From Synergistales bacterium (GTDB lineage: Bacteria > Synergistota > Synergistia > Synergistales > JAFGMB01), in the NCBI GenBank assembly GCA_963666205.1, contig OY762654.1, positions 960,001 through 1,024,000 on the forward strand: 64,000 nucleotides of DNA, given 5' to 3'. Within the stretch, counting starts at the first letter, position 1; each line of letters begins with the position of its first letter. Made by a program: the position numbers and the translations under genes. The notes below the pieces were generated by a model, which saw only the letters and a program-made list of their open reading frames with translations, was not told where the DNA came from and made no database searches. Below are positions 32,898-55,480 of this stretch, one piece after another.

Positions 32898-35771
32898 ATG
32901 ATGAAAAATAAATGGTTTCCTAATGAAGAATGGTTCAACAACGACGATGGTGAAGGAGGGCAGAAATTTCCTGCAAGACCCAGGATGCCCTTCAAAGTAA
33001 GCAGGCCGGTCTGGATAATCCTGCTGATAATAGCTGCTGTGATAGTAATTCTCCCTGCATTTGCCGATTTTTACACAGAACTTTTATGGTTCAGGGCTAG
33101 AGGCCTATCACAGGTTTTCTGGAAGAGACTCCTGCCTCAATGGGTGCTTTTTGGAGCAGCCGGACTGACAGCTCTTCTGGTTTACTGGTTCAATTTCAGA
33201 AAAGCTTTCAAGAATGCCCTGACCATGGCAAGTACCGATCTCCAGAACTTTTTGGGAAGGCGTTTTCCCGTTATCGTTCTCCTTGCAGTAGCTGCCGTAA
33301 TGGCAATAGCCAACGGACTTGCAACAAGAGGACAATGGGCAATGGTCCTCCGCTTTCTGCACAGGTCTCCCTTCAATCACGCAGATCCTATCTTTGGAAA
33401 GGATGTGGGCTTTTATATATTCAGTCTTCCCTTCCTATCCTTCCTCCAGGGATGGCTTCTCAATGTGGGTATCTTATCTCTTCTCGGATGCGGAGTGATC
33501 TATTTCCTTGCCCTCATGCCACAGTTTCAGCAGCAGGGGAAGATTCCCGTACCAAGAAAACTCCAGTTCCATCTCACCCTGGTGGGTTCTGTCATAATTT
33601 CTCTATGGGCGGCCGGTTACTGGATACAGAGGTATTACCTCCTCTACTCTCCCAGAGGTGTCGCTTTCGGAGCCAGTTACACTGATATCCACGCCGATCT
33701 TCTTGCCCTGAATGTAATGACCATCCTTACCCTTCTTGTGGCTCTCCTTCTTCTTTTAAGCCTTTTTCTCAAGAAGACATGGAAATTTTCTGTAGGTCTG
33801 GTGGTTGTCCTGGTTTTGACAAATGTTGTTCTCAGGGGCATCTATCCGGGACTTATTCAGAAATATGTGGTTGTGCCTAATGAATTCGGCAAGGAAATGC
33901 CCTATATAGAGCACAATATAAAAGCGACCCTGGATGCCTATAAACTTTCAGATCTGGAAACAGAAATGATAGTACCCGATGACCAGGTTGAGGTGGAACA
34001 GATAAACAGCAACTTCGACACCATCCATAACATCCGCCTTTGGGACTATCGGCCTCTTACAAGAACATACAAGCAGCTCCAGGAGATCCGCTCCTATTAT
34101 GATTTCCCCGATGTTGATATCGACAGGTACACTTTCGGAGATGAATACAGACAGGTCATTCTTGCAGCAAGGGAACTGGATCTCAAGGGTCTTCAGAATC
34201 CCACATGGGTCAATACCCACCTTGAATTCACCCATGGATACGGCATCGTGATGAACCCTGTAAACGAGGTAAGCCCCAGCGGTCTTCCCGTACTGTGGGT
34301 GAAGGACATACCACCGAATCTTTCCGTTCCGCTGGAACTGAACAGACCGGAGATCTATTATGGTGAAAAGGCCAGCACATATCTTTTCGTCAATACCACT
34401 GTAAAGGAATTCGACTATCCCATGGGCGAATCGAATGCCCGGACAACCTATGCCGGAAAGGGAGGCGTATCAATAGGCTCTCTTTTCAGAAGGCTTCTCT
34501 TTACTCTCAGTTTCGGCGATTCCAGGATCCTTTTCACTAATGTGTTTACCCCTGAAAGCAAGGTCATGTACCATATGAACATAAGAGAAAGGCTGCAGCA
34601 TGTCGCCCCCTTCCTTATGTACGACAGCGATCCCTACCTGGCAGTCATAAACGGAAGACTTGTCTGGATAATGGATGCATACAGTATTTCCGATCGTTAT
34701 CCCTATTCAGAACCTGTGTCCATAGCAGGAAATAATTCCACAGAATACGGCAGGATCAACTACATCCGCAACAGCGTCAAGGCAACAGTGGACGCCTACG
34801 ATGGTGATATGCATTTCTATATTGCAGATAAAACGGATCCCCTGATAAAAACATGGTCAGATATTTTCCCGGGGCTGTTCTCTCCCCTTGAAAAGATGCC
34901 TCCTGTCATGAAGGATCACCTGCGGTATCCCAAGGGACTCTTCGGAGTTCAGAGTGAGATCTACAGGACCTATCACATGACGGACCCAAACACCTTCTAC
35001 AACAAGGAAGATGTATGGGAGGTAATAAGCCAGGGAGATCGCCAGGATCGACTTGATGCCTATTACATGATAATGAGGCTGGCAGGAGAAGAGAAGGCGG
35101 AGTTTGTCCTTATTGCTCCCTTCATGCCCGTAGGAAGGGATAACATGATAGCATGGATGGCCGGCAGATCTGACGGAGAGAATTATGGTCAGCTCCTGGT
35201 CTACCGTTTCCCGAAACAGAAACTTATCTATGGACCATCCCAGATAGAGGCCCTGACCGACCAGAACCCGGAAATTTCCGCCCAGCTTTCTTTATGGAGT
35301 CAGCGGGGATCGGATGTAATAAGGGGGCACCTGCTGGTCATACCCATCGAGAACTCCCTCCTGTATGTTCAGCCCCTGTACCTGAGAGCTGAAACCAGTG
35401 ATCTGCCCGAACTCAAGAGGGTAATAGTTTCCACGGGAGGCAGGGTGGTCTGGGATACGACCCTGGATAAAGCCCTTGTTAAACTGATGGGACAGCAATA
35501 CCAGACAGGTGAAGAAAGAATATCGAGGACTGAAGTCACTCCTTCCTCTACCTATACAGGAGAAGAAGATATTTCCCGGCTTGCTGCCCAGGCACAGAAA
35601 TACTGGCAGACTTCACAGGAAGCCCTTAAAAATGCAGACTGGGAAACCTACGGCAGGGAAATGGCAAAACTGGAAAATGTGATCAGGAAGATGGCTGCTT
35701 TATCATCCATACCAGTGGATTCCGATAAGGATAAGGTCCCTGTCTCAATTGATCAGGAAATAACCCGCTAG
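32898..35771 (+). CDS. UPF0182 family membrane protein
   Basis: DPIFGKDVGFYIF, GASYTD, NIRLWD, DVDIDRY, HLEFTHGYG, NYIRNSVK and YVQPLY motifs. Confidence 0.93.
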   Translation: MMKNKWFPNEEWFNNDDGEGGQKFPARPRMPFKVSRPVWIILLIIAAVIVILPAFADFYTELLWFRARGLSQVFWKRLLPQWVLFGAAGLTALLVYWFNFRKAFKNALTMASTDLQNFLGRRFPVIVLLAVAAVMAIANGLATRGQWAMVLRFLHRSPFNHADPIFGKDVGFYIFSLPFLSFLQGWLLNVGILSLLGCGVIYFLALMPQFQQQGKIPVPRKLQFHLTLVGSVIISLWAAGYWIQRYYLLYSPRGVAFGASYTDIHADLLALNVMTILTLLVALLLLLSLFLKKTWKFSVGLVVVLVLTNVVLRGIYPGLIQKYVVVPNEFGKEMPYIEHNIKATLDAYKLSDLETEMIVPDDQVEVEQINSNFDTIHNIRLWDYRPLTRTYKQLQEIRSYYDFPDVDIDRYTFGDEYRQVILAARELDLKGLQNPTWVNTHLEFTHGYGIVMNPVNEVSPSGLPVLWVKDIPPNLSVPLELNRPEIYYGEKASTYLFVNTTVKEFDYPMGESNARTTYAGKGGVSIGSLFRRLLFTLSFGDSRILFTNVFTPESKVMYHMNIRERLQHVAPFLMYDSDPYLAVINGRLVWIMDAYSISDRYPYSEPVSIAGNNSTEYGRINYIRNSVKATVDAYDGDMHFYIADKTDPLIKTWSDIFPGLFSPLEKMPPVMKDHLRYPKGLFGVQSEIYRTYHMTDPNTFYNKEDVWEVISQGDRQDRLDAYYMIMRLAGEEKAEFVLIAPFMPVGRDNMIAWMAGRSDGENYGQLLVYRFPKQKLIYGPSQIEALTDQNPEISAQLSLWSQRGSDVIRGHLLVIPIENSLLYVQPLYLRAETSDLPELKRVIVSTGGRVVWDTTLDKALVKLMGQQYQTGEERISRTEVTPSSTYTGEEDISRLAAQAQKYWQTSQEALKNADWETYGREMAKLENVIRKMAALSSIPVDSDKDKVPVSIDQEITR

Positions 35772-35843: not shown

Positions 35844-36956
35844 TTGGAAGACCCCAGATTGAGAAAACTGGCAGAAATGCTCATAAATTACTGCACGGAA
35901 CTCCAGAGGGGCGAAAACATCCTTATAGAGATCTCCGGAAAAGCCGAACCCCTCGGAAAAGCTCTTGTTGAAGAAGCCTACAAGGCCGGAGGCAACCCCT
36001 TCGTTACGATGAGACACGATCTCATACAGAAAGCCCTGCTAATGAAACTGGAGGAAAAACATGCCCGAACGATGGCCAGACACGATCTTGCCCTTATGAA
36101 GGATATGGATGCCTACATCGGAGTTAGAGCTACCCTTAACAAGAGTGAATTGAAGGATGTCCCGTCATCAGGAATGGCTGTTTTTCAGAAATACTACCTC
36201 GAACCTGTCCACAGCCGGGAAAGGGTCAATAATACCAGGTGGGTGGTACTTCGGTACCCCAGTGGATCCATGGCACAGTTGGCAAAAATGGGTACTGAAG
36301 AATTTGAGAATTTCTTCTTTGACGCATGCCTTGTGGATTACAGGAAAATGGAGGATGACCTTAAACCCCTTGTGGAGATCATGCAGAAAACAGATAAGGT
36401 CCTGATAAAGGGACCAGGCACAGAGCTGACATTTTCCATAAAGGACATTCCCGTTGTTCCATGTTTCGGCAAGATCAACGTACCTGACGGAGAGGTTTTT
36501 ACTGCCCCGATCAGGGATTCTGTCAATGGTATTCTGACATATAACACTCCTTCGGCATACCAGGGTTTCATTCATGAAAATATATCCTTTGAGTTCAGTA
36601 ACGGAAAGATCGTAAAAGCCACATCGAACAACAGCACGAGGCTTAATGAAATACTGGACACGGATGAGGGATCGAGATATATCGGGGAATTTGCACTGGG
36701 TGTAAATCCAAGGATCCTTCACCCCATGACAGATACTCTTTTTGATGAAAAGATAGCCGGAAGTTTCCATCTCACTCCAGGGAACTGCTATGAAGAAGCG
36801 CCAAACGGGAACAGATCTGCCATCCATTGGGATCTTGTATCTATACAGAGAAATGACTATGGCGGAGGAGATATCTATTTTGATGATGTACTTGTCAGGA
36901 AAGATGGCTCCTTCGTAATGGATGAACTCCAGAACCTCAACCCTGAAAACTGGTAA
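35844..36956 (+). CDS. Aminopeptidase, M29 (AmpS/AmpT) family
   Basis: NVPDGEVFTAP, GEFALG, LFDEKI, HLTPGNCY and SAIHWD motifs. Confidence 0.93.
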   Translation: MEDPRLRKLAEMLINYCTELQRGENILIEISGKAEPLGKALVEEAYKAGGNPFVTMRHDLIQKALLMKLEEKHARTMARHDLALMKDMDAYIGVRATLNKSELKDVPSSGMAVFQKYYLEPVHSRERVNNTRWVVLRYPSGSMAQLAKMGTEEFENFFFDACLVDYRKMEDDLKPLVEIMQKTDKVLIKGPGTELTFSIKDIPVVPCFGKINVPDGEVFTAPIRDSVNGILTYNTPSAYQGFIHENISFEFSNGKIVKATSNNSTRLNEILDTDEGSRYIGEFALGVNPRILHPMTDTLFDEKIAGSFHLTPGNCYEEAPNGNRSAIHWDLVSIQRNDYGGGDIYFDDVLVRKDGSFVMDELQNLNPENW

Positions 36957-36958
36957 AG

Positions 36959-37003
36959 ACAAGAGGGTGCAGTCGGCCTTGAAGGTCGACTGCACCCTCT
37001 TGT
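36959..37003. terminator. Hairpin between convergent genes
   Basis: ACAAGAGGGTGCAGTCG / CGACTGCACCCTCTTGT. Confidence 0.75.
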
Positions 37004-37027
37004 TAATTCATTTCGTGCCATTATCGA

Positions 37028-37903
37028 TCAGTTATTGATTTCACCCCTGGCAGCGAGGACTATACCAGCCATGATCATCAGGGCTCCGGCAACCGTGGTG
37101 AAGGTTAAAGCCTCCCCCAGGAAGATCATGGCAAGAAGAGTGCTTCCCACAGGCTCACCAAGAAGGCTGATGGCCACCATGGGGGCACTGAGGTATTTAA
37201 GTGCCCAGTTGTATGAGCTGTGTCCAAGTATCTGTGGAATAACAGCCATGGCTGGAAACATCAGCCATGTCATTGCGGAAAAACCGGTAAACCGGGTGCC
37301 TGTTAACAGAACTGCTGTCCAGAGGAACAACCCTGCCGAGCAGTAACATATGGTGATATAGGTCAGGAGAGAGAGTTTTCTTCTGAGAATTCTTCCTCCA
37401 AAGAGATAGCCGGTCAGGAAAAGGGCCCCCAGGATGGCAAGGATATCCCCATAGAAAGCTCCTCCTCCCAGCTGCAGGTCATTCCAGCCTATGACAGAAG
37501 CTCCTGAAAAACTGAGGAGAATCCCTGCAAAGGTCAATCTTGAGATCCTGTCTCCCAGAAGGGGGGCTATCATGGCCGCCCAGATGGGACTTGTGTTCAC
37601 AAGGACCACACTCGTCGCCACAGAAGTCTTTTCCAGGGAACTTATCCAGGTGAAGAAGTGGAGGGCAAGAAAAGCACCGGAAACAATACCCAGGATCCAG
37701 TCCTTTTTCTTAAGTAAAAGGAATTCCTGTTTCCTGCTCAATAAAGCCGCCGGCAGAAGCAGAAGCCCGGCGATCCCAACCCGGTATGCAGCAATCGCAA
37801 GGGGTGGAGCATCTGCAATCCGCGCAAAGATCGCTCCGGTTGAAATACACAATACTCCCAGGCATAGTACTCCGTAAATGGCACCCCTTTTTTCCTGTAT
37901 CAT
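37028..37903 (-). CDS. DMT/EamA family transporter
   Basis: HFFTWISSL..TSVA, PQILGH and GEPVG motifs; ATGA overlap with the upstream MFS stop. Confidence 0.9.
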   Translation of the reverse strand: MIQEKRGAIYGVLCLGVLCISTGAIFARIADAPPLAIAAYRVGIAGLLLLPAALLSRKQEFLLLKKKDWILGIVSGAFLALHFFTWISSLEKTSVATSVVLVNTSPIWAAMIAPLLGDRISRLTFAGILLSFSGASVIGWNDLQLGGGAFYGDILAILGALFLTGYLFGGRILRRKLSLLTYITICYCSAGLFLWTAVLLTGTRFTGFSAMTWLMFPAMAVIPQILGHSSYNWALKYLSAPMVAISLLGEPVGSTLLAMIFLGEALTFTTVAGALMIMAGIVLAARGEINN

Positions 37904-39048
37904 AAGGACCCTTTCTTTCTGTGGAAGTGAAGCCATATAAGATGCATCAGGCTTGCGAGGATAACGGACCCTATAGCCATCAATCTATATGCAAGGACGA
38001 TGCCTCCCAGTGAAGAAACATAACCTATGTAAAGGGGAAGGAGGAACCAGCTCAGATCCATGAAAAAAAGGATAAAGGAGGTTATCTTGGGCCTCAGGTA
38101 AACGGGGACAAGGTCTCCTGCAAGGGAAAGAAGGGCCGGGAAACCATAGCCCACTCCCAGACCGTAGATAAAACCGGTCAAGGCAAGTAAAACATTGTTT
38201 CTGACCATTGTCGCCATAAAAAGAGCTACTCCCATACAGAACAGGGATGGCCCCATAAGAAGGATCCTGGGAGTCCTGTTGAAGAAGCTCCGGCCCGCCA
38301 TCCTGATAAAAATGGATCCCCCTGCAAAGGCTACCATAAAAAATGAAGGGCTTAATCCCAGATGGAAGGTCAGGCTGGATATGTAAATGATAGAAGCATC
38401 GCCAAAGGCGAAAAAAAGGACTGTCATGGAAAGTATTCCCAGGGGGGCTTCCCTGATCAGATCAGTATAACTGCCCCAGGCCTGATCCTGGGCACCCCTT
38501 ACTCCACTCACTTTATCCAGGGAAAATGCAAGAAATGTACATACTCCTCCCATAAGGGCAGGCAGCATCAGGTAAATAACGAAGTTTTCTGAACTGATGA
38601 GCATGTCGCACACAGGCATAAGGGTAAACATGGGACAGATACTGCCTATGGTGGTAACGGCAAAAGAGGCACCCCTTTCTGAATCGGGAACCATAATATT
38701 CTGGTATGCCGTAAGTCCTACCATGAATATGCCGAAGGAAAGTCCCATAACCAGGCGGAGGAAAAAGAGAGGTAAAAAGACCATAGGTGCAAGTATGAGG
38801 CCAATACCGCTGGAAAGGCCAAGAAAACCGGCTATTATGAGGGATCTTCTTACACCCAGATTCTCCATGAGCATTCCTGCAAAGGGTTTGACCAGAGTTG
38901 AAGAGGCATAGAATGCACCTATTACCCATCCTGTAAGGTGTGTGGGGAAACTATGAAAGGTAAGATAGGGTGCAAAAAAGAAAAATATGGTAGAAAAACC
39001 GAAAATTGCATAGTTCCCTGCAAAGAGCTTAAAAAGGGTATTGGTCAA
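37900..39048 (-). CDS. MFS transporter
   Basis: About 12 hydrophobic segments; LRLVMG and ERG motifs; TTG start with SD. Confidence 0.82.
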   Translation of the reverse strand: MTNTLFKLFAGNYAIFGFSTIFFFFAPYLTFHSFPTHLTGWVIGAFYASSTLVKPFAGMLMENLGVRRSLIIAGFLGLSSGIGLILAPMVFLPLFFLRLVMGLSFGIFMVGLTAYQNIMVPDSERGASFAVTTIGSICPMFTLMPVCDMLISSENFVIYLMLPALMGGVCTFLAFSLDKVSGVRGAQDQAWGSYTDLIREAPLGILSMTVLFFAFGDASIIYISSLTFHLGLSPSFFMVAFAGGSIFIRMAGRSFFNRTPRILLMGPSLFCMGVALFMATMVRNNVLLALTGFIYGLGVGYGFPALLSLAGDLVPVYLRPKITSFILFFMDLSWFLLPLYIGYVSSLGGIVLAYRLMAIGSVILASLMHLIWLHFHRKKGSL

Positions 39049-39154
39049 TATAACCTCTCCTCAAAGGATGTTCCGGGAAGGATCAGCCTCTAGACAAAGA
39101 TCTGCAGAACCCAGCCTGAATAGCTGATCAGATATGTTTATTGGTAGAACCTTT

Positions 39155-39409
39155 TCATCTCCAGACAAACTGGAGAAAACACAATCCGGCCAGGTATCCC
39201 AGGCCAGCCTGAAGGGAATTACAGAAGAACAGAACCCCTTCCAGGAAAAGGAAATATCCAAGTGCTCCAAAAGCTGCAAGGGCATAAGGGTCTTTCTTTC
39301 GAAGTTTTTCAAGATATGTCCGTCGATATATCACCTTTGCCGGTATCAGGCCGAACATGGCACCTATGGGGAAAGCCAGGAGAAATAGTGTCAAGCCCAT
39401 CATCTCCAT
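39155..39409 (-). CDS. Possible small membrane protein
   Basis: 84 aa with hydrophobic segments, co-oriented with neighbours and filling an intergenic gap; SD weak. Confidence 0.45.
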   Translation of the reverse strand: MEMMGLTLFLLAFPIGAMFGLIPAKVIYRRTYLEKLRKKDPYALAAFGALGYFLFLEGVLFFCNSLQAGLGYLAGLCFLQFVWR

Positions 39410-39500
39410 CCGAAAGGATATCAGAGTGCCTTAAATATTCCTTTCATCCCCAGTATAGTCATGGAGGACCTTTTTTTCAAACAGTCCGGTAAAAGTTCGT

Positions 39501-39540
39501 AAAAAGAGAATGGAGGACGCTGCAGGCGTCCTCCATTCTC
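39501..39540 (-). terminator. Intrinsic terminator after the SNF transporter
   Basis: GAGAATGGAGGACGC / GCGTCCTCCATTCTC with T5 on the minus strand. Confidence 0.8.
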
Positions 39541-39574
39541 CATGGCGTAGATAAGAAGAAATACTCAGGTAGAC

Positions 39575-40936
39575 TTAAAAAATGGCTGTTACCATGATTA
39601 TGAAAACGGCCACCGGGACAACAGCTACTACAAGGGGCTTCCATGAATTGGCGATCCTGAAGGTCTTTGCACCCACGTTGCTCTCATCTTTGAAGTTCGC
39701 AAACTTCCACACAAAGGCAGTGTAAAGGGCAATGAGAAGGGCATCCACAGGCATCATGACATTTCCGGAGATATAGTCTGCGAGGTCAAAGAAATTCTTT
39801 CCAAAGATCAGTATATGGCTCCATGGACCCTGTGAAAGAATGGAGGGGATACCGAGGATATACATAATGGCAAGAATACCCCATACAGACTTTTTCCTGC
39901 TGATCCCGAAAAGTTCGGAAAATGTCGCCGCAGGAGCTTCAAGGTAGCCCATACCGGATGTGAGACCTGCCAGAACCACAAGGAAGAAGAACATTGAGGC
40001 AAAGATACTTCCACCGGGAAGCTGGCCGAAAATAACAGGCATGGTCTTGAAAAGGAGACCGGGACCAGCCTGGGGATCCATTCCAAAGCAGAAAAGGGCC
40101 GGGAAGATGACCAGTCCTGCTACAACTGCAATTCCCGTATCAAGGGCAATAACAATGGTAGCATCAGCGGGAAGATCTGAATCGGGAGCAAGATAGCTGC
40201 CGTACACAAAGGCACAGGCGATACCGATTCCGATGGAGAAGAAGGCCTGACCCAGAGCTGCAAGGACCACACCGCCATTTATCTTTGAAAAATCAGGGGT
40301 TACATACCATTTGAGGCCGGCCATGGCACCTGCCGCGCCTTCGACCTGGGGAGACATCATGAGCGATTTTACTGCCAGGATAAGGAGCATTATCATAAGA
40401 GCTGGAAGCATCCATTTACAGGCTTTCTCGACTCCGTCCTTGAGGCCCCTGGTAACGATAACACCAAGTACCACCACAACACCAAGTGTATAAGCGCCCA
40501 CCTGCATCGGGTCGGAAACAAAAGTATCATACATGACACTTGTCTGCTCTGGTGTGACCCCTGCGAAGACCCCCGTAAGGGCCTTGACAAAATATGCTGC
40601 CATCCAGCCAATGACCATGAGGTAATAGGACATCAGAAGAATACACGCAATGGCTCCTATCCAGCCTATCATTACCCAGGGACTGCCCTTGTGGGTCAGT
40701 TTCTGCATTCCCTGAATGGGATTGAGCCGCGTCTTTCTTCCAAGACTGATCTCTGCGATGAAAAGAGGCACACAAATAGTAAAACAGATGGCCAGGTAAA
40801 CGACAAGAAAGGCTCCGCCTCCATTGGTTCCTACCATGTAGGGGAATCTCCATATATTTCCAAGTCCTATTGCAAAACCGGCTGTTGCCATAATAAAGCC
40901 AAAGCGGCTGCCCCAGCTTTCACGTTTCTGTTCCAT
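39575..40936 (-). CDS. Sodium-dependent amino acid transporter (SNF/NSS, LeuT family)
   Basis: RESWGSR, AIGLGNIWRFP, NGGGAF, GQAFFS and GPGLLF motifs. Confidence 0.95.
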   Translation of the reverse strand: MEQKRESWGSRFGFIMATAGFAIGLGNIWRFPYMVGTNGGGAFLVVYLAICFTICVPLFIAEISLGRKTRLNPIQGMQKLTHKGSPWVMIGWIGAIACILLMSYYLMVIGWMAAYFVKALTGVFAGVTPEQTSVMYDTFVSDPMQVGAYTLGVVVVLGVIVTRGLKDGVEKACKWMLPALMIMLLILAVKSLMMSPQVEGAAGAMAGLKWYVTPDFSKINGGVVLAALGQAFFSIGIGIACAFVYGSYLAPDSDLPADATIVIALDTGIAVVAGLVIFPALFCFGMDPQAGPGLLFKTMPVIFGQLPGGSIFASMFFFLVVLAGLTSGMGYLEAPAATFSELFGISRKKSVWGILAIMYILGIPSILSQGPWSHILIFGKNFFDLADYISGNVMMPVDALLIALYTAFVWKFANFKDESNVGAKTFRIANSWKPLVVAVVPVAVFIIMVTAIF

Positions 40937-41058
40937 GTATTTCTCTCCCTTCAGTCCTGTTGTTCGATCATCAACCTTCGAAGAGAACCAGAATGAGATT
41001 TTTTTCACTTTCAGTTACAGTAAAAGAATACAATGAATTCAGTTTAAAAAAGATACAG

Positions 41059-42582
41059 CTATTTGAGAGAGAACAGATGTTTTTCCAGGTCTTCGGAGCT
41101 CAAGATAATACCCTCTCTTTCACTGGTCCAGACTTCCAGTTCCATACCCCCCAGGGTGTCTTTCCCAGCCAGTACTTTTACAGGAATTCCCATTTCTATG
41201 GAATCATCCAGTTTCGAGTTTATCTTTTTATCCCGATCATCAAAGAGAATTCTGAAGTTTTTGGATGAAAGATGAAGATACAGATCCTCAACCTCAGTAA
41301 AAAGAGCATCTTCCCTGGAAAGAGCAGAGATAAGATGAATGTCAAAGGCAGACCATCCTGCCAGATTGTCAGAGCCATAACCCATAACTGAGAGCAGTAA
41401 CTGTTCCAGGTCTATGGTTCCCCGCCATACCTGGGGATAGCATTTTTCCCTGTTTTCATTGATGTAAGTCAGAGAAGGATAGTCTTCGGAAAGATGCCTG
41501 GTAGAATAGAAAGCACCTATTTCCGTAAAATATCCCTTATCCATCATTCCTCCACAGGAAGGACAGGGGGAATCCTTTCCGAAGGCGGCTATATCGCGCA
41601 CCATATCGGCTTTGAAATCCCTTTCCCAGCATGCACCCCTGAAATGGAAATCCGGTTTGTTGGCACCTGCTGCCAGGTTTATCGCACCCTCAACGCTTTC
41701 ATCTGCTACTACTGTTATTTCTTCCGGCAGTCCAATGGGACCACAGAATCCGGCGACTTCCCCTACGGCATCTTTCAGCTCATTTTCAGTTGCTCTCCTG
41801 AGTTTTACCCCTCCAAGGTAAAAGGAAAGCTTCTCAAGGGAAATATCCCTGTCCCCTCTCATCAGAGCGACCACAATCTGACCGGTTCCATCATCCATAG
41901 CATAGAACATGGTCTTTAATGTCTGAGAAGGGGGCAGGTCCAGCTGCCTGCATAGTTCAACAATGGTTGTAGCTCCCGGAGTATATATTTCTTCTAGTTC
42001 TTCTTTTCCTCCATTAGAGACGGCGCTTCTGCCCATGGGAGAAGAGGTGAACCCCTTCCATCCACATGTGGGGCAGACAAGACCGTCCCTTAATCCAAGG
42101 GCCTTTTTATCTCCTTCTACAACCATAGCGATCCTCTCTCCGCTGGAAACGATCTCTTTCAATGAAGAGATCCTTATACCCCCGGGAAGCAGAGCTTCCC
42201 GGCAGGACTGAAGACAGGTTTCCATTTGTGTCGAGACATCGTCTTCCACAGCGGAAAAAGCTGTAAGCTGGATATTCCGGTTCTTTTCCTCCATAAGGAT
42301 CATCGGGAGCTGATCTTTTGTTTTCAGTACCCTTACCACCAAAGCGAATGCGGCTTCATTATGGTTACCCGATATTTCCTGAATACCTGTGTTTTCGAAG
42401 GTTCCTTTTAATTTTCCTGAGATCTGCGCAAGTAACCCTACCCCCAAAGGAGTGAGCAGTATTTCTTCAGCAGAATTGTCATAAACAGCATAGCCGGCCT
42501 TTACAAGCCTTATAAGTCTCTGATCCTTGACTTTTGCCGGATTATTCCTTGTTGTCGGTGCAAGAATTGAAGATAACCTCAT
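41059..42582 (-). CDS. Degenerate prolyl-tRNA synthetase paralogue retaining the INS/YbaK editing and anticodon-binding domains
   Basis: ProRS-like N-terminus MRLSSILAPT; INS domain TPG..TI...LKTM...RGD...GFCGP...AGAN; C-terminal FDDR...GIP; class II motifs 2 and 3 not recognisable. Confidence 0.8.
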   Translation of the reverse strand: MRLSSILAPTTRNNPAKVKDQRLIRLVKAGYAVYDNSAEEILLTPLGVGLLAQISGKLKGTFENTGIQEISGNHNEAAFALVVRVLKTKDQLPMILMEEKNRNIQLTAFSAVEDDVSTQMETCLQSCREALLPGGIRISSLKEIVSSGERIAMVVEGDKKALGLRDGLVCPTCGWKGFTSSPMGRSAVSNGGKEELEEIYTPGATTIVELCRQLDLPPSQTLKTMFYAMDDGTGQIVVALMRGDRDISLEKLSFYLGGVKLRRATENELKDAVGEVAGFCGPIGLPEEITVVADESVEGAINLAAGANKPDFHFRGACWERDFKADMVRDIAAFGKDSPCPSCGGMMDKGYFTEIGAFYSTRHLSEDYPSLTYINENREKCYPQVWRGTIDLEQLLLSVMGYGSDNLAGWSAFDIHLISALSREDALFTEVEDLYLHLSSKNFRILFDDRDKKINSKLDDSIEMGIPVKVLAGKDTLGGMELEVWTSEREGIILSSEDLEKHLFSLK

Positions 42583-42653
42583 TTTATTGACCTCCTGTAA
42601 AGATGTTCTGATCAAGAGCTGATATCTGTGACCGGTAAAAAGGTTTTCAGAGA

Positions 42654-42998
42654 TCATACCATCTTCATGGCTATCATGACCTGTTCCAGGTCAATAAGGG
42701 CAAAATCTCCATCTGCTTCCGGATCATCATAAAAAACCTGTGAGCGAAATCTCTCCACCGCTTTTTCCAGAAGAACCAGTCCCTTCATATCCATGTCATT
42801 TGAAGAGCTGTTTACAAGGATGGACCTGTATGGATTCATAAAAAGCCTCTGGTTTGCAGGCAAAGGCATACTCACAAGATCATGACCGGATTCCAGATAC
42901 TTCCTCACTTCAAGAAGTACGTCCAGGGGATTCCCCCTTACGGGATGATTATCTTCTATCTTATCCAGAACAAAAGGATTGTTGCTTATAACTTTCAA
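42654..42998 (-). CDS. grdX: GrdX family protein
   Basis: VISNNP, DVLLEVR...GH.L...PL, NPYRSI and DFALID; directly after grdA. Confidence 0.85.
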   Translation of the reverse strand: MKVISNNPFVLDKIEDNHPVRGNPLDVLLEVRKYLESGHDLVSMPLPANQRLFMNPYRSILVNSSSNDMDMKGLVLLEKAVERFRSQVFYDDPEADGDFALIDLEQVMIAMKMV

Positions 42999-43084
42999 CT
43001 GTGAACACTTCCTTCAGGCCTATACATTTTTATCAGGTGGACGGGGCTTTTCGCCCCGTCCGCAATATCCAAAGGGGGGAACCT

Positions 43085-43561
43085 TTAGATAGAGAACTGG
43101 CTGAATTCTTCTCTCATTGATTTCACTGCTGCACAGAGACCGTCAGTATCCAGAACCATCTCCATCATAGAGATATTTTCTTCCCATGCGGCTTCATCAG
43201 CTTCGTTACGAATTTCATCTTCAAAAATGTCATATACGGCGAGTCCCAACTGGACTCCGGCCAGTGGACCTGCAAAAGTCGGATCTCCGTTTGCAACGGT
43301 TTCAGCATAGATCTCTGCACCTTCGGCATCAGAAGAACCAAGTACTACTACCAGGTTCTCTTTGCCGTATTTATCGGCTGCATCCTTTATCCTCTGCTGA
43401 TTCTGCAAATCCATAGCACCTGCCGCAGTTCAGACAAAACATTCCGTAACTGAAAATACTATCTCTGCTCCTGAGTCTTTCAGACATGCTTCCATTGCTG
43501 GTCCGGGAACTCCGTCTCTTTCTCCCAGAAGAAGCATTTTCTTTCCTGCTAATCTACCCAT
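43085..43561 (-). CDS. grdA: Glycine/sarcosine/betaine reductase selenoprotein A (158 aa, Sec44)
   Basis: [11 protein letters not shown]...TECFV-UGA(43430-43432)-TAAGAMDL in frame with ORF 43085-43414; SD AAGGAGG. Confidence 0.96.
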
Positions 43562-43639
43562 TTGTGCACCTCCTTCCGCCTTGTATACAACAGAAGAGGG
43601 ACAGAGATACTGATACTATTCTGCCCCTCAGGCTGTTCA

Positions 43640-44950
43640 TTATTCTTTAAATATGGTCTGTTCCTTTATTTCTGTAGACATAGCCTTGAAAGCCCTCTGA
43701 AGGAGCTCTCTTCTCTTCTTCCTGTCTCCTTCGGGTCCTGATTCAGGATCTCCTACCGGATGAGGGATAGCCACACCGGGAACTATCCTGTTGGCTCCAA
43801 CTGTGAGCATTATAGGTACTATTGTTGCTATCTGGACTACAGGGATACCGGCTTCTTTCTCTATTTCCCGAACCATCGATGCACCGCATCGGGTACAGGT
43901 GCCTCAGGTGGATGTGAGAATGACAGCATCAACACCAGCCTCTTTAAGTTCCTTGCCGATGGCCTGACCGAAACCTTCGGCATTGGCTACTGCTGTACCG
44001 GTTCCGGTAGTACAGTAAACGAAATCATGAAGCTTGCCGAAAACTCCTTCTTTTTCCATCTCCCGCATAATATCAAGGGGAAGGACTACATCAGGGTTAT
44101 CGTTCGCATATACCCTGTCATAACCTCCATGGATGGACTCGTAATTTTCCGGTGTAAGGTCTTCGAGTTCGGAGATATTGTATTTGCCGAATTTCTCAGC
44201 AGAAGAAACCCTTATGTGATCAGGATTACCGAAGGGAACGATGCCGCCGGAAGTACAAAGGGCAATAGTGGCCTTACTCAGGTCAGCAATGGGAGCTGCC
44301 GGATCTATCTTTTTGAATACCGGCATTTCGAGTTCTGTTTCGAAAGCTTCTCCCCGGATCTTCCTGAGCAGCATATCAACTCCTCTTTCTGCTCCTGACT
44401 TGTCATGGAAAAAGCTTTTACGGATACCTCTGTGGATATAACCTTCAAAGCGGGCTGGGCCAAGTTTCTCTTTTTTCAGCAGTTTCAGAGCAAGAGTAAC
44501 CATTCTGGACAGGGCATCTCTCATACCCCTGGCGCTGTCACTGGTTTCGACAATGTATGTTTTTTTATGGTACATTTCGACACCGGGGTTTTCCCCATAA
44601 AGGGCTGTAACTGTGGGGATCCCAAGCATTTCTCCCGCAGCTGAACATATATCACCACAGGCAACGCCATAACGGCCGGCATTGAAACCAGGACCGGCAA
44701 TAAGCATATCGGGCTTGAAAGCCTTTATCATTTCAACACACTCAGCCTGGGCTTTTTCCATATTCTCACCGTAATAACTGTCACCGCAGATAACCGTACC
44801 TACGACTTCGGCCTCTCCCTGAAGCAGGTTCTGAAGCTGAAGTCCGGGACCCACTATCCCGTCCCGGGATGATGGTGGTACATGGGCTGTATCTTCTCCG
44901 CCCATTCCTGCATAAAACTGATTTATATAATGAACAACCCTGTAGGTCAT
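43640..44950 (-). CDS. Glycine-reductase-family selenoprotein B (GrdB/GrdF-like, 436 aa, Sec349)
   Basis: VVHYINQF, GPGFNAGRYG; ILTST-UGA(43904-43906)-GTCTRCGASMVREIE joins two listed ORFs into a UxxCxxC motif. Confidence 0.95.
43872..43894 (-). promoter_or_regulatory. Putative bacterial SECIS hairpin of selenoprotein B
   Basis: ACC-CGAUGC-GGU-GCAUCG-AU-GGU starting about 10 nt after the UGA, with G in the apical loop. Confidence 0.65.
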
Positions 44951-44972
44951 TTTTCTACCTCCTTAACCTCAA

Positions 44973-46259
44973 CTAGACCCATTCGCAGCCTAGTTTGCTG
45001 AATCCCAGCTCATTGGTGGAACCGATGATCGACTGGAGTTCAACATACATGGAACCATCCTCACGCAGACTGTCAGACGCTCCTCCGGAGAGATGTGCGA
45101 TGGCTTCCGGGAATCCTATGATCTTATCCATGGCCGGAACTTCTATCATCTCATTAACATTTCCGGCTGAAACGAAACCGGTCATTTCAGGTGTAGCATC
45201 TGCAAGCCCCTGGCTTGAACCGTCAACTCCTGCTGCCTCATCTGAAATAACTACAGTTTTGATGCCCCAGTCTTCACACTTCTTGGCATTCATGCAAAGG
45301 TCGGTATCCGGATTGCCATAGCCTTCTTCAGAAATAACCACACCATCTGCTCCGAGCTGTCTGGCCAGATTGGCATTCATCCAGGTGGTTCTCTCCTTGC
45401 CAGCCAGCACTGTGCTTTCAAGAGTTGGAATAACACCGATGAAATTGATCTCCTTGCCATGACGCTTGTAGAGCTCAAGAACGATAGGATCGTTCACATG
45501 ATGGAAGGTCGTATTCTTGTCACAGGCTGAAACGCAGTTTCCCGAGACCATGGCTCCGTCAAGGATCTCATTGGGATGGACCAGGGTGGGAACTATGGAC
45601 TTCATGTCAGCTCCGTAGAGGAAGGTATCGTGGAGAAGCCCCTGGGTAATGGACATGCAGAAATAGGTTATCTTGGGGAGGTCCGGGTATTTATTGTTTT
45701 CCTCAACTATGGAACCCTTGTCAAAGACCTCGACGTTATCGGCCTTTGTCTCCTTGCACTGGTCAGCAAGGTAAACGGAAAGTTTAAGCCCTGCTTCCCT
45801 GAGGGATTTTTCGTAGGCATGTTTTTCAAGGTCTGCAACAGGTTCTGCTACTATTACGAGATTAAAGGTCTCTGAAAAGGGGTTATAGGGACTTGCCGGA
45901 CCGCTCATGTCAATAAAACCTTCCTGGAAAGCCACTATGGGACCGCAGGTAATTACAGAAGCACCCTTGAGGACAAAGGTCGCACCCTCGCCTACCGGTT
46001 CCATGGGAGCGCAGAAACCTGGAAAGAAAGAAGTACCTCCCTCCAGCTTGATCCTTGGTTCCACTACATCCTTGACAGGAATTATCCTGACACTTTCCCC
46101 GGGACGGGCCAGCTCGAGCTGTACATCAGCAAAATTTTCGTCTGCCGCAACAACTTTGATGGCCTCTTCCCTGTTGACATAAAGGACATTATCCTTCAGG
46201 GAGGTTTTTTCACCCCACTGAATATCCTTCACAAAAGCATTATGAAGTTCCAACCTCAT
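44973..46259 (-). CDS. Glycine-reductase-family component B proprotein (GrdE/GrdG-like)
   Basis: PVKDVVEPR, FQEGFIDMSG, SGNCVSACDKN and EGYGNPDTD motifs; 428 aa. Confidence 0.93.
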   Translation of the reverse strand: MRLELHNAFVKDIQWGEKTSLKDNVLYVNREEAIKVVAADENFADVQLELARPGESVRIIPVKDVVEPRIKLEGGTSFFPGFCAPMEPVGEGATFVLKGASVITCGPIVAFQEGFIDMSGPASPYNPFSETFNLVIVAEPVADLEKHAYEKSLREAGLKLSVYLADQCKETKADNVEVFDKGSIVEENNKYPDLPKITYFCMSITQGLLHDTFLYGADMKSIVPTLVHPNEILDGAMVSGNCVSACDKNTTFHHVNDPIVLELYKRHGKEINFIGVIPTLESTVLAGKERTTWMNANLARQLGADGVVISEEGYGNPDTDLCMNAKKCEDWGIKTVVISDEAAGVDGSSQGLADATPEMTGFVSAGNVNEMIEVPAMDKIIGFPEAIAHLSGGASDSLREDGSMYVELQSIIGSTNELGFSKLGCEWV

Positions 46260-46544
46260 ATTGAAGCCTCCTTCTTTTACATATTTCAGGGACAGGACAT
46301 GAATATCCCCTTAATAGACCCTTTTTAACGTAAAGATTATAAGAAGACGCAACCTTATTTACATCGTACGAATCATATGGTATTTAAACTATCATGGAAC
46401 TGTTTTTTAGTGCAGATAGTACAAATACCTCTTTTGCTTTCACTAAAGGCTTCAGATAAGGGTTCCTGTTGAAACGTTACGGGAACTGTCAGATGATGAC
46501 CTTACCATGAAGACCCGGGGTAAGAATAAACAGGAGGGCAGGTA

Positions 46545-47789
46545 ATGCTTACAAAATGGGCTGCCGAGATCGCTGGATCCACAGCTGAAGTTATAGGATA
46601 TGATGTTATCATCACTGATACGGAAGGGATAATAATAGGAGCAAGCAACATCCTCAGACTCGGATCCCTTCATGAGCAGTCCCTTGATGTTATCAGATAT
46701 AACCGGGGTGCTGCTGTTGACGAAACAGAAGCGCAGAAATTCAGGGGAACCCTTCCTGGGGTAACTTACCCTATTCAGTCCATGACAGGTAAGGTCGTAG
46801 GTTCTATGGCCATAACGGGCAAACCTGTAAACGTAAAACCCTTTGCGCTTATAGTGAAGAAACAGATAGAGATCCTTCTGCGCGAAAGAGAACTTCAGGA
46901 ATACGCTACAAACAGGGAAGAAACTCTGCAGGCAATAATCCACGATATTTCCCATTACATTTCCGGCATATCGGATCGTAGAATGCTTATATCAAGGGCA
47001 AGAGAATTCGGATTTGACCCATCATTTCACTATATCCCGATCGCTGTCGATCTCTACCAGTTCGCGAGATATGCAAGAAAAATACGAAACGACTGCCTGA
47101 AAGACAGGACAGAAACCCCTGAACTCCTTATACAGAAGACCAAGAATGAGATCCTGAAAAGGATACGCCTGGCCTTTCCCGATCCGGCAGATATTTCAGT
47201 AATGACAGGAAATAACAAGTATTTTATCCTTCATTCCGTGGGAAACAGCCCCTCGGGACGGGAGAGATCCATCTACAGGTATACAACCTCCTCCTGCAGA
47301 CAGATACTGGAAGATCTGGCCAAGATGAATCTGAATGCTGCCATAGGAATAGGTTCCATGGCAGGGAACCTGGAAGAATTGTCCAATTCATACCAGGAGG
47401 CCTGGCGGGCTTTACAGCTTGGTAAAAAATATAATCAGGGTCCTGGGATATACAATATCCAGGATTACAGGGTCGAAGAGCTCCTGGCATCTCTGCAGCC
47501 TGGCCTCAGAAACCGTTTTATCCAGAGAAACGTGGCTGCTTTCAGACAGCAGAACGACTGGGAAGAGCTCAGACAGACATTTCTGACATGGTGTGAAAAC
47601 AACTTTTCCCTTGTAAGCGCAGCCCGGGAACTTCACATTCACAGAAACACCCTTAACTACAGATTGGAAAAGATCAGAAGAATAGGAAACGTAGAACTCA
47701 GGAATTACCGGGACACCCTCAAACTGTATCTCGCTCTCCGACTGGAAAAATTCATTGGACCGGGACTTCATGAAGAAGATGAATCCTGA
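46545..47789 (+). CDS. CdaR family transcriptional regulator
   Basis: N-terminal sugar-diacid recognition-like domain (DVIITDTEGIIIGAS...GVTYPI); C-terminal LHIHRNTLNYRLEKI HTH. Confidence 0.92.
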   Translation: MLTKWAAEIAGSTAEVIGYDVIITDTEGIIIGASNILRLGSLHEQSLDVIRYNRGAAVDETEAQKFRGTLPGVTYPIQSMTGKVVGSMAITGKPVNVKPFALIVKKQIEILLRERELQEYATNREETLQAIIHDISHYISGISDRRMLISRAREFGFDPSFHYIPIAVDLYQFARYARKIRNDCLKDRTETPELLIQKTKNEILKRIRLAFPDPADISVMTGNNKYFILHSVGNSPSGRERSIYRYTTSSCRQILEDLAKMNLNAAIGIGSMAGNLEELSNSYQEAWRALQLGKKYNQGPGIYNIQDYRVEELLASLQPGLRNRFIQRNVAAFRQQNDWEELRQTFLTWCENNFSLVSAARELHIHRNTLNYRLEKIRRIGNVELRNYRDTLKLYLALRLEKFIGPGLHEEDES

Positions 47790-47941
47790 AACAGCTGAAA
47801 GGGGTAAGCCGGCTTTACCTCAAAACAGAAGGACATTGGACCAGGTATCATTTTTGTGCAATAGATATAGTGACAGATCCGCTTCGTACATATAGTCTGG
47901 AAAGAGACCTGAAAACCTTAAGAATAAAATAGATCGGGGGA

Positions 47942-48949
47942 GTGTTGAGAATGTCCCGGGAAAATGTTTTACTGCTTTTCAGCAAAGGTTATCCCTGCTG
48001 GAATGAGGAACTTGTTGAACTGGCGGGAGAAAATCCCACTTTCCTGCAGGACCTTCAGCAGGAAGGACTCCTGGTGAAAGAGAATGGGATCTGTTCTCTG
48101 ACCCCGGCAGGAAGAAAGGCTTTCACTGAAATAGCCAGAGAATACTATTATGATGCCGCCCCGGCAGATCCAGCCGAAGATCATGGAAAAGAACTTATGA
48201 AATGCAGGCTTTCCCTGGTGCTGAACAGATCCTTTGTGGGGAGATGGGGCGTGAAGAATTTCCATGTGGGACAGCGTTTATCCTATTACCCCGGGTTAAA
48301 AAAAGGAGATATCTGCTCCATCAGTCCTTCAATGAAACCCCGATGGCTATACAACGAGATGGCTATCATCAATGAGATCAGGGAGACCTTCCCCCAGAAC
48401 AGACAAACAGACCGTCACCCCACCATTCAGGAGATAAAAGAATGGATGGAAGAAAGGGGCATGGAAGAAGGATCTCTGGAGATCGACGTCCTTTTCCTTC
48501 ATTATTGCGACTTCGTGCACTATATGCACAAGGTCCCTCCCGCATCAGACACATTAAAACTCCTGCATGCCGATCGTTTTTATATGAATTTTGTCAGAAA
48601 AGAATTTTATGATGACCCCCTGCTGCTCTTCGAAGAAATAGGGAAATTCCATCTTTTCCTTCTCTACTACAGGCACCTTATCCTCCCTGGCAACTTCGAT
48701 ATTGATATTCACGAGCAGGGAAACCTGAATGCCCTTATGTACATAACTGAAACAGAAGAGGAAGCAATACGATTTTATGAAACATTCAGTCCTATGGCAG
48801 AAGAACTCACAGGCCCCGCCCATCCCATGGACATCTGGTCCATGAGTATGGAGGCTATAGAAAACCACCCCATTAAGGAGGATTCTCACTTTGATTTTTT
48901 TGCAAAGATCGGACACAGGGTCGCCATAACATATCCGCCCGGGGGCTGA
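47942..48949 (+). CDS. Hypothetical protein
   Basis: 335-aa ORF with purine-rich SD-like upstream sequence; start uncertain; no family recognised. Confidence 0.75.
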   Translation: MLRMSRENVLLLFSKGYPCWNEELVELAGENPTFLQDLQQEGLLVKENGICSLTPAGRKAFTEIAREYYYDAAPADPAEDHGKELMKCRLSLVLNRSFVGRWGVKNFHVGQRLSYYPGLKKGDICSISPSMKPRWLYNEMAIINEIRETFPQNRQTDRHPTIQEIKEWMEERGMEEGSLEIDVLFLHYCDFVHYMHKVPPASDTLKLLHADRFYMNFVRKEFYDDPLLLFEEIGKFHLFLLYYRHLILPGNFDIDIHEQGNLNALMYITETEEEAIRFYETFSPMAEELTGPAHPMDIWSMSMEAIENHPIKEDSHFDFFAKIGHRVAITYPPGG

Positions 48950-50869: not shown

Positions 50870-51745
50870 TCAAGTTCTATCTCCAAAAGAAAACCCGTCC
50901 TCCCTGAAAACATCGATACAGGCTTTCACTACATGGGGGTCAAACAGTTTTTCGCTGTCCTTCCTTATAGTTTCAAGAGCCTCATCAAGTCCGACCGCAG
51001 CCCTGTAAGGGCGATTGGAAGACATGGTCTCAACTACATCAGCTACCGCTATTATCCTCGAACAGAGATGTATTTCCTCTCCCTTAAGCCCATAGGGATA
51101 ACCTGAACCATCCATCCTTTCATGATGCTGGGAAATGATCTCGGCTACCGGACATGGAAAATCTATCTCCTCGACGATATCCTTCCCCATCTTCGGATGA
51201 GTCCGTATCATCCTGTATTCAAGTTCTGAAAGATCTCCAGGCTTTGTAAGCAGATCTGAAGGAAGGCTGATCTTGCCGATGTCATGTATCATGGAGCTTA
51301 TCCTCAGACATTCAGTCTCCTCTTCTGAAAGACCCATTTTCTCTGCTATGGCAACAGCGAGCATGGTCACCCTCTCCTGGTGTCCCTGGGTATAGGGATC
51401 CTTGGTTTCAAGGATCTTGCTTATGGATCTTATAGCACTGTCAAGGGTTTTTGCCATTCTTTCATAATTGAGACGGATCTCAGTCTCATATCTTTTTTCT
51501 ATATTGGAACGGCCTTTCAGTTCGCCATAAATGTAGGAAAAAAGGAGAATACCGCTCACGATGACAAATAGCAGGCCCTTGTACGTCTGGAATCTCGAAA
51601 GCTGCTCCGGAGATTTTGCTAAATGCTCGATAAGGGTATCGGAAAAGAATATCCATGCACCGGCAATAAGAATATAAAAGGATACTATCCTCAACGTGAT
51701 CCTGAAGATCCGGTTTTTACTCTCTCCATGCCCTGTATCCTTCAT
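50870..51745 (-). CDS. Membrane-anchored HD-GYP phosphodiesterase
   Basis: KDPYTQGH, HDIGK, HHERMDGSGYP and RPYR motifs; two N-terminal TM helices. Confidence 0.93.
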   Translation of the reverse strand: MKDTGHGESKNRIFRITLRIVSFYILIAGAWIFFSDTLIEHLAKSPEQLSRFQTYKGLLFVIVSGILLFSYIYGELKGRSNIEKRYETEIRLNYERMAKTLDSAIRSISKILETKDPYTQGHQERVTMLAVAIAEKMGLSEEETECLRISSMIHDIGKISLPSDLLTKPGDLSELEYRMIRTHPKMGKDIVEEIDFPCPVAEIISQHHERMDGSGYPYGLKGEEIHLCSRIIAVADVVETMSSNRPYRAAVGLDEALETIRKDSEKLFDPHVVKACIDVFREDGFSFGDRT

Positions 51746-51830
51746 ATCGGATCATCTCCCTGATCCACGGCAGTATAAAAAAGAAGCTTGAGCCAGATTC
51801 CGGTCATAAGATCAATTATCGAATGGAGGC

Positions 51831-54542: not shown

Positions 54543-54658
54543 TGTAATCCTCCTGCAACGAGATCTTTCCAAGGGACCTTTGCTTTTCCATTTACAAGCT
54601 TTAGGAAACGATTCTTCAAGGCAAATGGGTGTTCCCCATACCCCCGGGTCAGGTAAGG

Positions 54659-55252: not shown

Positions 55253-55480
55253 GAAATTCCCCCTTATATATTCTGGCGGTACTCCCTGGTAAGGATCAGT
55301 TTCAGAAGCAAAGCCTGACCAGGGAACATAAAGCTTACCGGACTTCACTGATTCCTCTGTACAGATTAAACATGGCAGAACAGCACATTTTCCAATGACA
55401 TCCCATTCGCTTTATCGTATCATATAGACAAAAGAAAACTTACAGATTCAAGATCTTATCTCCTCAAGGAGGCTTGAACA

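Follow-up and report, generated by a model that had tools for sequence, protein, structure and literature searches.

What can a prolyl-tRNA synthetase (ProRS) still do once its synthetic site is gone? This question is raised by a gene in the window analyzed here, a stretch of 64,000 nucleotides from a Synergistales bacterium (assembly GCA_963666205.1, contig OY762654.1, positions 960,001 to 1,024,000). The gene lies on the reverse strand behind a module of Grd-type selenoprotein genes and encodes a protein, which we call pseudo-ProRS, with the architecture of bacterial ProRS, an INS editing domain, an anticodon-binding domain, and a class II core from which catalytic segments have been deleted. 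Its most probable job is proofreading of tRNAPro, and we assign a probability of roughly 0.55 to the reading that it is an anticodon-guided trans-editing deacylase for mischarged tRNAPro. A coupling to the grd genes is suggestive but unproven.

The longest open frame at the locus (41059-42657, reverse strand) comprises 532 amino acids. The homologues in our alignments share the Met of MRLSS (position 42582) as their first residue, and a Shine-Dalgarno sequence lies 8 nt upstream of this ATG, an arrangement repeated in the sister genome (L047); we therefore placed the start at MRLSS, giving a protein of 507 amino acids. The upstream ATG of the 532-residue frame was rejected as a start, since it is not conserved and the Shine-Dalgarno sequence sits before MRLSS. 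Pfam matched the protein to tRNA_edit (PF04073, residues 201-320, 81.7 bits against a cut-off of 25.5) and HGTP_anticodon (PF03129, residues 421-488, 32.1 bits against a cut-off of 21), and the same scan gave no match to the class II core PF00587. The NCBIfam models of bacterial ProRS (TIGR00409 and NF006625) matched only over model positions 244-548, with scores of 141 bits (cut-off 558) and 96.3 bits (cut-off 306.7). The YbaK model TIGR00011 scored 34.1 bits, below the 153.25 that marks members of that family, and the Pfam and NCBIfam scans detected no Grd family that would make the protein a member of the Grd complex. The closest solved structure by sequence was Enterococcus faecalis ProRS (PDB ID: 2j3l; E = 9.8e-29), the alignment pairing residues 193-501 of the window protein with residues 249-559 of that enzyme.

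Alignment with true ProRS showed what has been lost. The proline-loop region, approximately 36 residues that separate motif 1 from the QLP stretch, is absent, as are the 18-residue motif 2 and about 14 more residues. Escherichia coli ProS R140 and R151, which were invariant in 13 true ProRS, were deleted in all 50 family members compared. E. coli R450 of motif 3 corresponds to Gln394 in the window protein, and Arg did not occur among the other 47 residues shown for this column. Having lost the proline-loop segment, the motif 3 Arg, and motif 2 in its entirety, the protein, as judged from these alignments, cannot activate proline. The retained overall ProRS fold might hint that an unusual active site still lets it act as an aminoacyl-tRNA synthetase or as an amino-acid ligase; with motif 2 deleted, the motif 3 Arg replaced, no class II core match, and ProRS model scores far under the cut-offs, we regard the probability of this as practically negligible.

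The editing site, in turn, has been preserved. The E. coli INS residues K279, L266, H369, and T257 were kept in 50 of 50 family members, I263 in 49, and T277 in 47. Substitution of K279 by Ala makes E. coli ProRS editing-defective (PMC3973320), and L266 and H369 are described as tuning INS specificity, the His sparing Pro-tRNAPro from hydrolysis (bioRxiv 10.1101/2020.09.11.293571). K223 (in LKTM) and H313 of the window protein map to K279 and H369, respectively. Across 39 members of the family, these two residues, the GFCGP loop (278-282), and the Cys pairs C170/C173 and C340/C343 were invariant or at least 90% conserved. In total, 26 alignment columns were invariant among the 39 members, down to approximately 30% identity. 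The family motif near the N-terminus, NxPAKVKD, differs from true ProRS, and its P15 and D20 are invariant. An earlier sequence-only reading of this stretch had described an intact, ProRS-colinear frame of about 500 codons in which motif 2 was collapsed and motif 3 lost, with the conserved Lys, the GFCGP loop, and the flanking CxxC pairs in place. Each of these features was recovered here, and the comparison with ProRS profile models that it proposed gave the partial, low-scoring matches described above.

An AlphaFold2 model computed from the family alignment was confident (predicted local distance difference test, pLDDT, 90.4; predicted template modeling score, pTM, 0.85) and superposed on bacterial ProRS as a whole, with 2j3l as the best match (E = 3e-41, TM score 0.82, 19% identity). 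This suggests that the gutted core still folds. We then estimated dN/dS with the NG86 method against same-genus and same-family orthologues, obtaining 0.218 and 0.148, respectively, for the whole gene. The values for the separate parts against the same-genus orthologue were 0.145 for INS, 0.05 for the second part of the core, and 0.20 for the anticodon-binding domain, and INS gave 0.112 against the same-family orthologue; for comparison, GrdE and GrdB ranged from 0.02 to 0.065 and GrdX from 0.09 to 0.26. The loss of the catalytic motifs and the absence of the gene from many related genomes could be taken as signs of a decaying, functionless relic of a displaced bacterial-type proS. Such decay is very improbable in view of an open frame of 507 codons, dN/dS values of 0.15-0.22, 26 invariant columns in 39 members, the confident fold, and the presence of the family in approximately 101 genomes of 9 GTDB families. 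The gene is thus maintained, as the sequence-only reading had proposed, and its product is ProRS-like in predicted structure.

The pseudo-ProRS cannot be the ProRS of the cell. An archaeal-type ProRS without INS is the only ProRS of the genome to exceed its curated cut-off (553.4 bits against 437), and the model search found no bacterial-type ProRS over the cut-off in the genome. The separate, intact proS that the sequence-only reading presupposed is therefore present, and the possibility that pseudo-ProRS is the only proS was discarded. Archaeal-type ProRS was found in 242 of the 268 genomes of the phylum and in none of the 7 deep-branch genomes, which carry a true, INS-bearing ProRS. The bacterial identity set, C1:G72 with A73, occurs in each of the three tRNAPro genes, and the genome has a tRNASec gene as well. 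The genome encodes other candidates for editing: a separate YbaK (155 amino acids; 171.9 bits against a cut-off of 153.25), a ProXp-ala-type protein (179 amino acids; PDB IDs 1vki, E = 8e-28, and 5vxb, E = 7e-22), a ProXp-x-type protein (2cx5, E = 3e-27), and a second pseudo-ProRS paralogue of 512 amino acids, 30% identical to that of the window. This paralogue (G000:C1:1625467-1626984 (-), equal to L001:1429-2967 (-)) is flanked by genes for a VanZ-like protein and a universal stress protein and is not near grd. A further tRNA_edit-like frame (60.7 bits) at G000:C1:2486487-2486819 (+) (L012) contains five stop codons and is probably a dead free-standing editing gene.

The distribution of the family was assessed by database and genome searches. 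The database search returned 38 clusters without PF00587 (P0002-P0039), followed by a sharp score drop to true ProRS with PF00587; the few source names available for these clusters were Synergistales or Synergistota. A profile of 39 members matched 108 of the phylum's 268 genomes. Among these were the seven deep-branch genomes, whose frames of approximately 580 amino acids matched only profile positions 106-510 and are true ProRS, so that the family is present in approximately 101 of the 261 genomes of the window's order, across 9 GTDB families. Carriage varied by family, from 19/19 genomes in f10 and 19/23 in f7 to 3/107 in f6 and 0/5 in f3. Since most genomes of some families with the same archaeal-type ProRS do without it, pseudo-ProRS is dispensable. 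Members are variously named "prolyl-tRNA synthetase," "YbaK/EbsC family protein," and "hypothetical protein" in their sources, and the first of these names is wrong.

We built a maximum-likelihood tree from 50 members of the family and 12 true ProRS (62 rows, the fragmentary L083 having been dropped), which placed the true ProRS in one clade (100/100). Members with NxPAKVKD, including the window copy, formed one side of a branch supported at 100/99 and were designated type B; type A, including the second paralogue of the genome, was paraphyletic between type B and true ProRS. The window copy is a derived type B paralogue, and K17 and G316 are substitutions specific to this type.

The family was also compared with ProXp-ala in a sample of 71 genomes, each at least 90% complete, in which the family was scored by its N-terminal domain. 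ProXp-ala was present in 4/24 genomes with the family versus 23/42 genomes of the same order without it (naive Fisher p = 0.004, related genomes not being independent), and the corresponding genus-level counts were 3/12 and 13/18. ProXp-ala was found in none of the 5 deep-branch genomes, where INS is present in cis. By these queries, 19 genomes of the sample had neither ProXp-ala nor the family.

The preserved INS positions, the role of the anticodon-binding domain, the distribution largely complementary to that of ProXp-ala, and the lack of INS in the working ProRS together argue for a trans-acting deacylase. INS is described as having no tRNA recognition of its own and as relying on the binding of G35 and G36 by the anticodon-binding domain (PMC3973320). 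In the mechanism that we propose, pseudo-ProRS would bind tRNAPro through its anticodon-binding domain, as bacterial ProRS does, and its INS pocket would hydrolyze small non-cognate aminoacyl groups of the Ala type from the tRNA, the conserved His keeping Pro out of the pocket. The class II core would be retained solely as a folded scaffold, and the protein would proofread in trans for the archaeal-type ProRS that has no INS. The tRNA trans-editing role put forward in the sequence-only reading thereby gains indirect support from the INS positions, the anticodon-binding domain, the tRNAPro identity set, and the complementarity with ProXp-ala; the hydrolysis itself we infer.

Several observations weigh against this deacylase reading. 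Family f6 uses the same archaeal-type ProRS, yet only 3 of its 107 genomes carry pseudo-ProRS. A large sister group, with short forms of 420-445 amino acids as in family f8, matches profile positions 2-414 only and has lost the anticodon-binding domain. This domain is weak in the window copy (PF03129, 32 bits) and more canonical in the type A paralogue (NF008979, 70.8 bits versus 33.2 bits in the window copy). The genome is redundant for the role, with the ProXp-ala-type and ProXp-x-type proteins, YbaK, and a second pseudo-ProRS whose anticodon-binding domain is better kept. Sequence change is faster in the N-terminal part than elsewhere in the protein (omega 0.48 against the closest relative). 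Lastly, because the family substitutions C211 and M225, as well as G316 in type B only, adjoin pocket residues, the specificity may differ from Ala. In view of the redundancy, the weak or lost anticodon-binding domain, the pocket substitutions, and the linkage to grd, we also kept a specialized, reductase-coupled role under consideration.

This linkage begins with the genes surrounding pseudo-ProRS (Table 1). On the reverse strand, grdE', grdB' (with selenocysteine, Sec), grdA (with Sec), and grdX precede pseudo-ProRS in this order, and a symporter gene, then genes for an MFS transporter and an EamA transporter, follow it. A second, canonical Grd cluster at 2.66 Mb has the order symporter-GrdX-TrxA-GrdE-GrdA-GrdB-GrdC-GrdD. 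The module of the window is an accessory protein B module, since it contains neither C subunits nor a thioredoxin and since identity to the canonical pair is only 58% for its GrdB' and 53% for its GrdE'. A consensus scan, the only terminator search made, detected no terminator-like site on the reverse strand from grdE' to the symporter gene, and Rfam (E <= 0.1) detected no riboswitch or T-box in 36500-48500, a selenocysteine insertion sequence (SECIS) element being the sole match. Judged by gene spacing and this consensus scan alone, the type B copy is probably co-transcribed with the accessory module, in which case the supply of pseudo-ProRS would rise upon induction of the reductase.

Table 1. 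Features of the pseudo-ProRS gene and its neighbors in the window.
Feature	Position	Strand	Basis
Pseudo-ProRS (type B) coding sequence, 507 amino acids and stop	41059..42582	-	Shine-Dalgarno sequence and homologue starts
Shine-Dalgarno sequence AGGAGG, 8 nt before the ATG at 42582	42591..42596	-	Sister genome (L047) arranged alike
First part of vestigial class II core, residues 1-190; motif 1 region present, no proline-loop segment or motif 2; NxPAKVKD; C170/C173	42013..42582	-	Alignments, no PF00587 match, confident fold
INS editing domain (tRNA_edit), residues 191-345; K223, L210, I207, H313, GFCGP 278-282; C340/C343 at its end	41548..42012	-	Pfam, alignments
Second part of vestigial core, residues 346-410; Gln394 at the motif 3 Arg position	41353..41547	-	Alignments
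Class IIa anticodon-binding domain, weakened, residues 411-507	41062..41352	-	PF03129, 32.1 bits; NF008979, 33.2 bits vs 70.8 in paralogue
GrdX family protein, immediately upstream	42654..42998	-	NF038093, 75.8 bits, cut-off 40
Selenoprotein A (GrdA), in-frame TGA read as Sec, CFVUTAAG	43085..43561	-	Pfam, NCBIfam, TGA in frame
GrdB-type selenoprotein B of accessory module, Sec349, TSTUGTC	43640..44950	-	58% identical to canonical GrdB of the genome
SECIS element straight after the GrdB UGA (SECIS_4, RF01990)	43866..43903	-	38.4 bits vs gathering score 38, E = 5.7e-6
GrdE/GrdG-type proprotein of accessory protein B module	44973..46259	-	PF09338, 636 bits; NF040793, 538.5 bits, below cut-off 780; 53% identical to canonical GrdE
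Sodium:neurotransmitter-family symporter, directly downstream, probably same transcript	39575..41008	-	Pfam, NCBIfam; no terminator-like site
Divergent PucR/CdaR-type regulator, kept beside the module in other genomes	46545..47789	+	Pfam, NCBIfam, locus comparison

We compared 40 pseudo-ProRS loci, with approximately 9 kb on each side and types defined by the tree. Genes of grd adjoined pseudo-ProRS in 10/40 loci, namely in 10/28 type B and 0/12 type A loci (naive Fisher p = 0.019, related genomes not being independent). The linked arrangements comprised the complete module in relatives of the same genus and family, regulator-GrdE'-GrdB'-pseudo-ProRS in four genomes of another family, GrdE'-B'-A-X-pseudo-ProRS in a third family, and pseudo-ProRS-GrdA in three genomes of a fourth. 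The synteny with grdX and its neighbors suspected in the sequence-only reading is thus real, although restricted to one sub-clade. At the loci without grd, the neighbors varied: dnaK/dnaJ; saccharopine dehydrogenase with a GntR regulator and AcrB; serine dehydratase with a PPIase; an EamA transporter; an M24 peptidase; and, for the short forms, a HAD hydrolase and a class I/II aminotransferase. The short-form genes (approximately 390-445 amino acids; L081, L083, L084, and L085; G167, G243, G245, and G229) lie directly after the aminotransferase gene, and three of these four loci have the HAD hydrolase before the aminotransferase and a HisZ/HisS-like gene nearby.

GrdX itself occurs in 2-4 paralogues in each of five related genomes (L096-L107). 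In each of the three genomes showing adjacency, the GrdX next to pseudo-ProRS has the lowest GrdX-model score (50-76 bits). In one genome (G166), an orthologous GrdX (53% identical to that of the window; L107, C176) and pseudo-ProRS (L020, C233) each stand at a contig end and face outward, which fits an adjacency broken by assembly.

These gene orders bear on the idea of proofreading coupled to the reductase substrate, in which type B would be a specialized deacylase made together with Grd' that removes from tRNA the amino acid, or an analogue, imported in bulk for reduction, which ProRS would mischarge owing to its small size. Consistent with this, grd adjoins type B and never type A in our sample, the order regulator-GrdE'-GrdB'-pseudo-ProRS recurs in three GTDB families, and the linked GrdB' and GrdE' are 65-69% and 71% identical across families versus 58% and 53% to the canonical pair of the same genome. 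The consensus scan showed no terminator-like site between the genes. In a genome equipped with ProXp-ala and a type A copy, an extra copy calls for a distinct job. CtdA, whose gene directly precedes the canavanine utilization operon (PMC10018355), provides a precedent, and type B has its own substitutions K17 and G316. However, the mapped INS positions are identical to those of the Ala-specific E. coli INS, and 18/28 type B loci have no grd neighbor. GrdB-type genes were found in 55/71 sampled genomes, including 23/27 of f6, in which pseudo-ProRS is limited to the 3/107 genomes noted above, and the gene order may be merely inherited, with no functional meaning. We consider such substrate coupling unlikely. 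As GrdB is common in a family that almost never has pseudo-ProRS, pseudo-ProRS is not a general Grd component.

The same neighborhoods would also suit a role without editing, in which the dead scaffold served as a sensor of tRNA or amino acids or as a structural partner of Grd proteins. HisZ offers the analogy, being a class II paralogue of HisRS that has lost catalysis and acts as a regulatory subunit without an editing domain. For such a role speak the NxPAKVKD motif, whose invariant P15 and D20 are kept more strongly than a bare scaffold needs and are unlike true ProRS, the adjacency of GrdX or GrdA in several lineages, and the dispensability of the anticodon-binding domain in one clade. 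Pure binding fails to explain the conservation of the hydrolytic-site Lys, the gatekeeper His, and the GxxGP loop, or the strong constraint on INS (dN/dS 0.145 and 0.112); moreover, most loci have no grd neighbor, and the complementarity with ProXp-ala points to editing. We judge a non-editing role to be improbable. Structure prediction of pseudo-ProRS paired with GrdX gave a score of 0.00 against a mark of 0.32, which speaks neither for nor against binding.

The composition profile of the window showed nothing out of the ordinary. Elsewhere in the window, a 20-bp perfect hairpin with 12 G-C pairs (36958-37004), terminator-like on both strands, lies just past the EamA gene. A 957-residue open reading frame at 32898-35771 (+) falls just short of the cut-offs of two "hypothetical protein" models, scoring 876 bits with NF002707 and 867 bits with NF000825. 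Genes for PanF (sodium/pantothenate symporter), PanC, and PanD stand together at 52766-57751 (-), and GGDEF and HD-GYP-like signaling genes lie beside them (50870-52760).

More distant relatives of the family were sought with a profile of the N-terminal 185 residues, which was searched against 1.84 billion representatives and gave 290 matches at E <= 1e-3, 30 of them at E <= 1e-30. Below the Synergistota-like group were colinear proteins of 486-547 amino acids (within P0152-P0254). All 21 of these distant proteins that were tested had tRNA_edit and HGTP_anticodon, had no PF00587 above the cut-off, and kept the equivalents of K279 and H369, and none of the 21 had the proline-loop segment or the glycine pattern of motif 3. 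Motif 2 was absent in 19/21, and a motif-2-like stretch was present in P0156 and P0208. A locus search started from this distant group, with an anticodon-binding-domain motif as its pattern, gave 80 loci, mostly true ProRS of Chloroflexota and others. The best matches of the distant proteins among these loci were Chloroflexota ProRS, mostly of Anaerolineae, and a few others, at 31-47% identity. Three loci from metagenome-assembled genomes of Anaerolineae (L114, L122, and L139) encode ProRS paralogues that are full-length but degenerate in motifs 2 and 3. At another locus, L149, the proline-loop segment is the only part missing, and motif 2 is retained. An ESM Atlas cluster of 387 amino acids named "Anticodon binding/Aminoacyl-tRNA editing domain" and mostly attributed to Acidobacteriota is a lead only. 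On these sequence comparisons, the family appears to be wider than Synergistota.

The family is apparently undescribed: our search of the open-access literature found no description of a ProRS-derived pseudo-synthetase with INS, and the main text of a paper on grd and far in Synergistota (PMC10838667) does not mention prolyl or YbaK. A far-reaching view would be that the INS superfamily holds a widespread, unrecognized multi-domain branch of dead ProRS scaffolds that have retained INS and, in most cases, the anticodon-binding domain, comprising the Synergistota family and the divergent Chloroflexota-ProRS-like proteins, and at the same time that the type B copy is a reductase-coupled proofreader protecting proline or other codons from an imported Stickland substrate or analogue. 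We find this combined view doubtful and offer it tentatively.

If pseudo-ProRS is indeed an anticodon-guided deacylase, it would bring the anticodon-guided editing of bacterial ProRS into cells with an archaeal-type ProRS. Free-standing INS-type factors locate tRNAPro either by its acceptor stem or by docking on ProRS, and an INS held in a gutted synthetase with an anticodon-binding domain would be a third solution. The family would also be a natural experiment on the role of a class II core after the loss of catalysis. The recurrent position of one sub-clade within an accessory selenoprotein reductase module suggests the idea that fermenters of amino acids might tie their capacity for proofreading to the amino acid that floods them.

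Among known systems, bacterial ProRS (2j3l and E. coli ProS) is the closest in architecture: a core with an inserted INS and an anticodon-binding domain, colinear with pseudo-ProRS and identical at the mapped INS positions, and in the alignment the CxxC pairs are common to pseudo-ProRS and Chloroflexota-type ProRS. Pseudo-ProRS differs in having no proline-loop segment, motif 2, or motif 3 Arg, and it scores about a quarter to a third of the ProRS cut-offs. HisZ is likewise a catalysis-dead class II paralogue kept for another job, whereas pseudo-ProRS has preserved a hydrolytic site. ProXp-ala (formerly PrdX/ProX) belongs to the same superfamily, carries the Lys/His/GxxxP signature, and is described as occurring where ProRS lacks INS; however, it is a single domain of approximately 170 amino acids that reads C1:G72 and A73 of the acceptor stem (PMC3973320), and pseudo-ProRS has 507 amino acids in three parts. 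In the relevant passages of a 2024 review (PMC11295145), the INS superfamily contains eight trans-editing families whose members are single-domain except for INS itself, and trans-editing domains generally have no RNA-binding domains, ThrRS-ed being shown with an anticodon-binding domain. CtdA, the canavanyl-tRNAArg deacylase, and FthB resemble the type B copy in that an editing factor is encoded beside the pathway for the offending amino acid; CtdA, however, is built on a PheRS B3/B4-type fold, and its substrate is proven. A parallel to the proposed division of labor is the crenarchaeal ThrRS-cat/ThrRS-ed split, of which pseudo-ProRS would be the ProRS counterpart: synthesis and editing are divided over two proteins, and the editing protein keeps the anticodon-binding domain. 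ThrRS-ed is archaeal, has an unrelated editing fold, and serves another tRNA, and its partner synthetase is its own paralogue, whereas the partner of pseudo-ProRS would be an archaeal-type ProRS.

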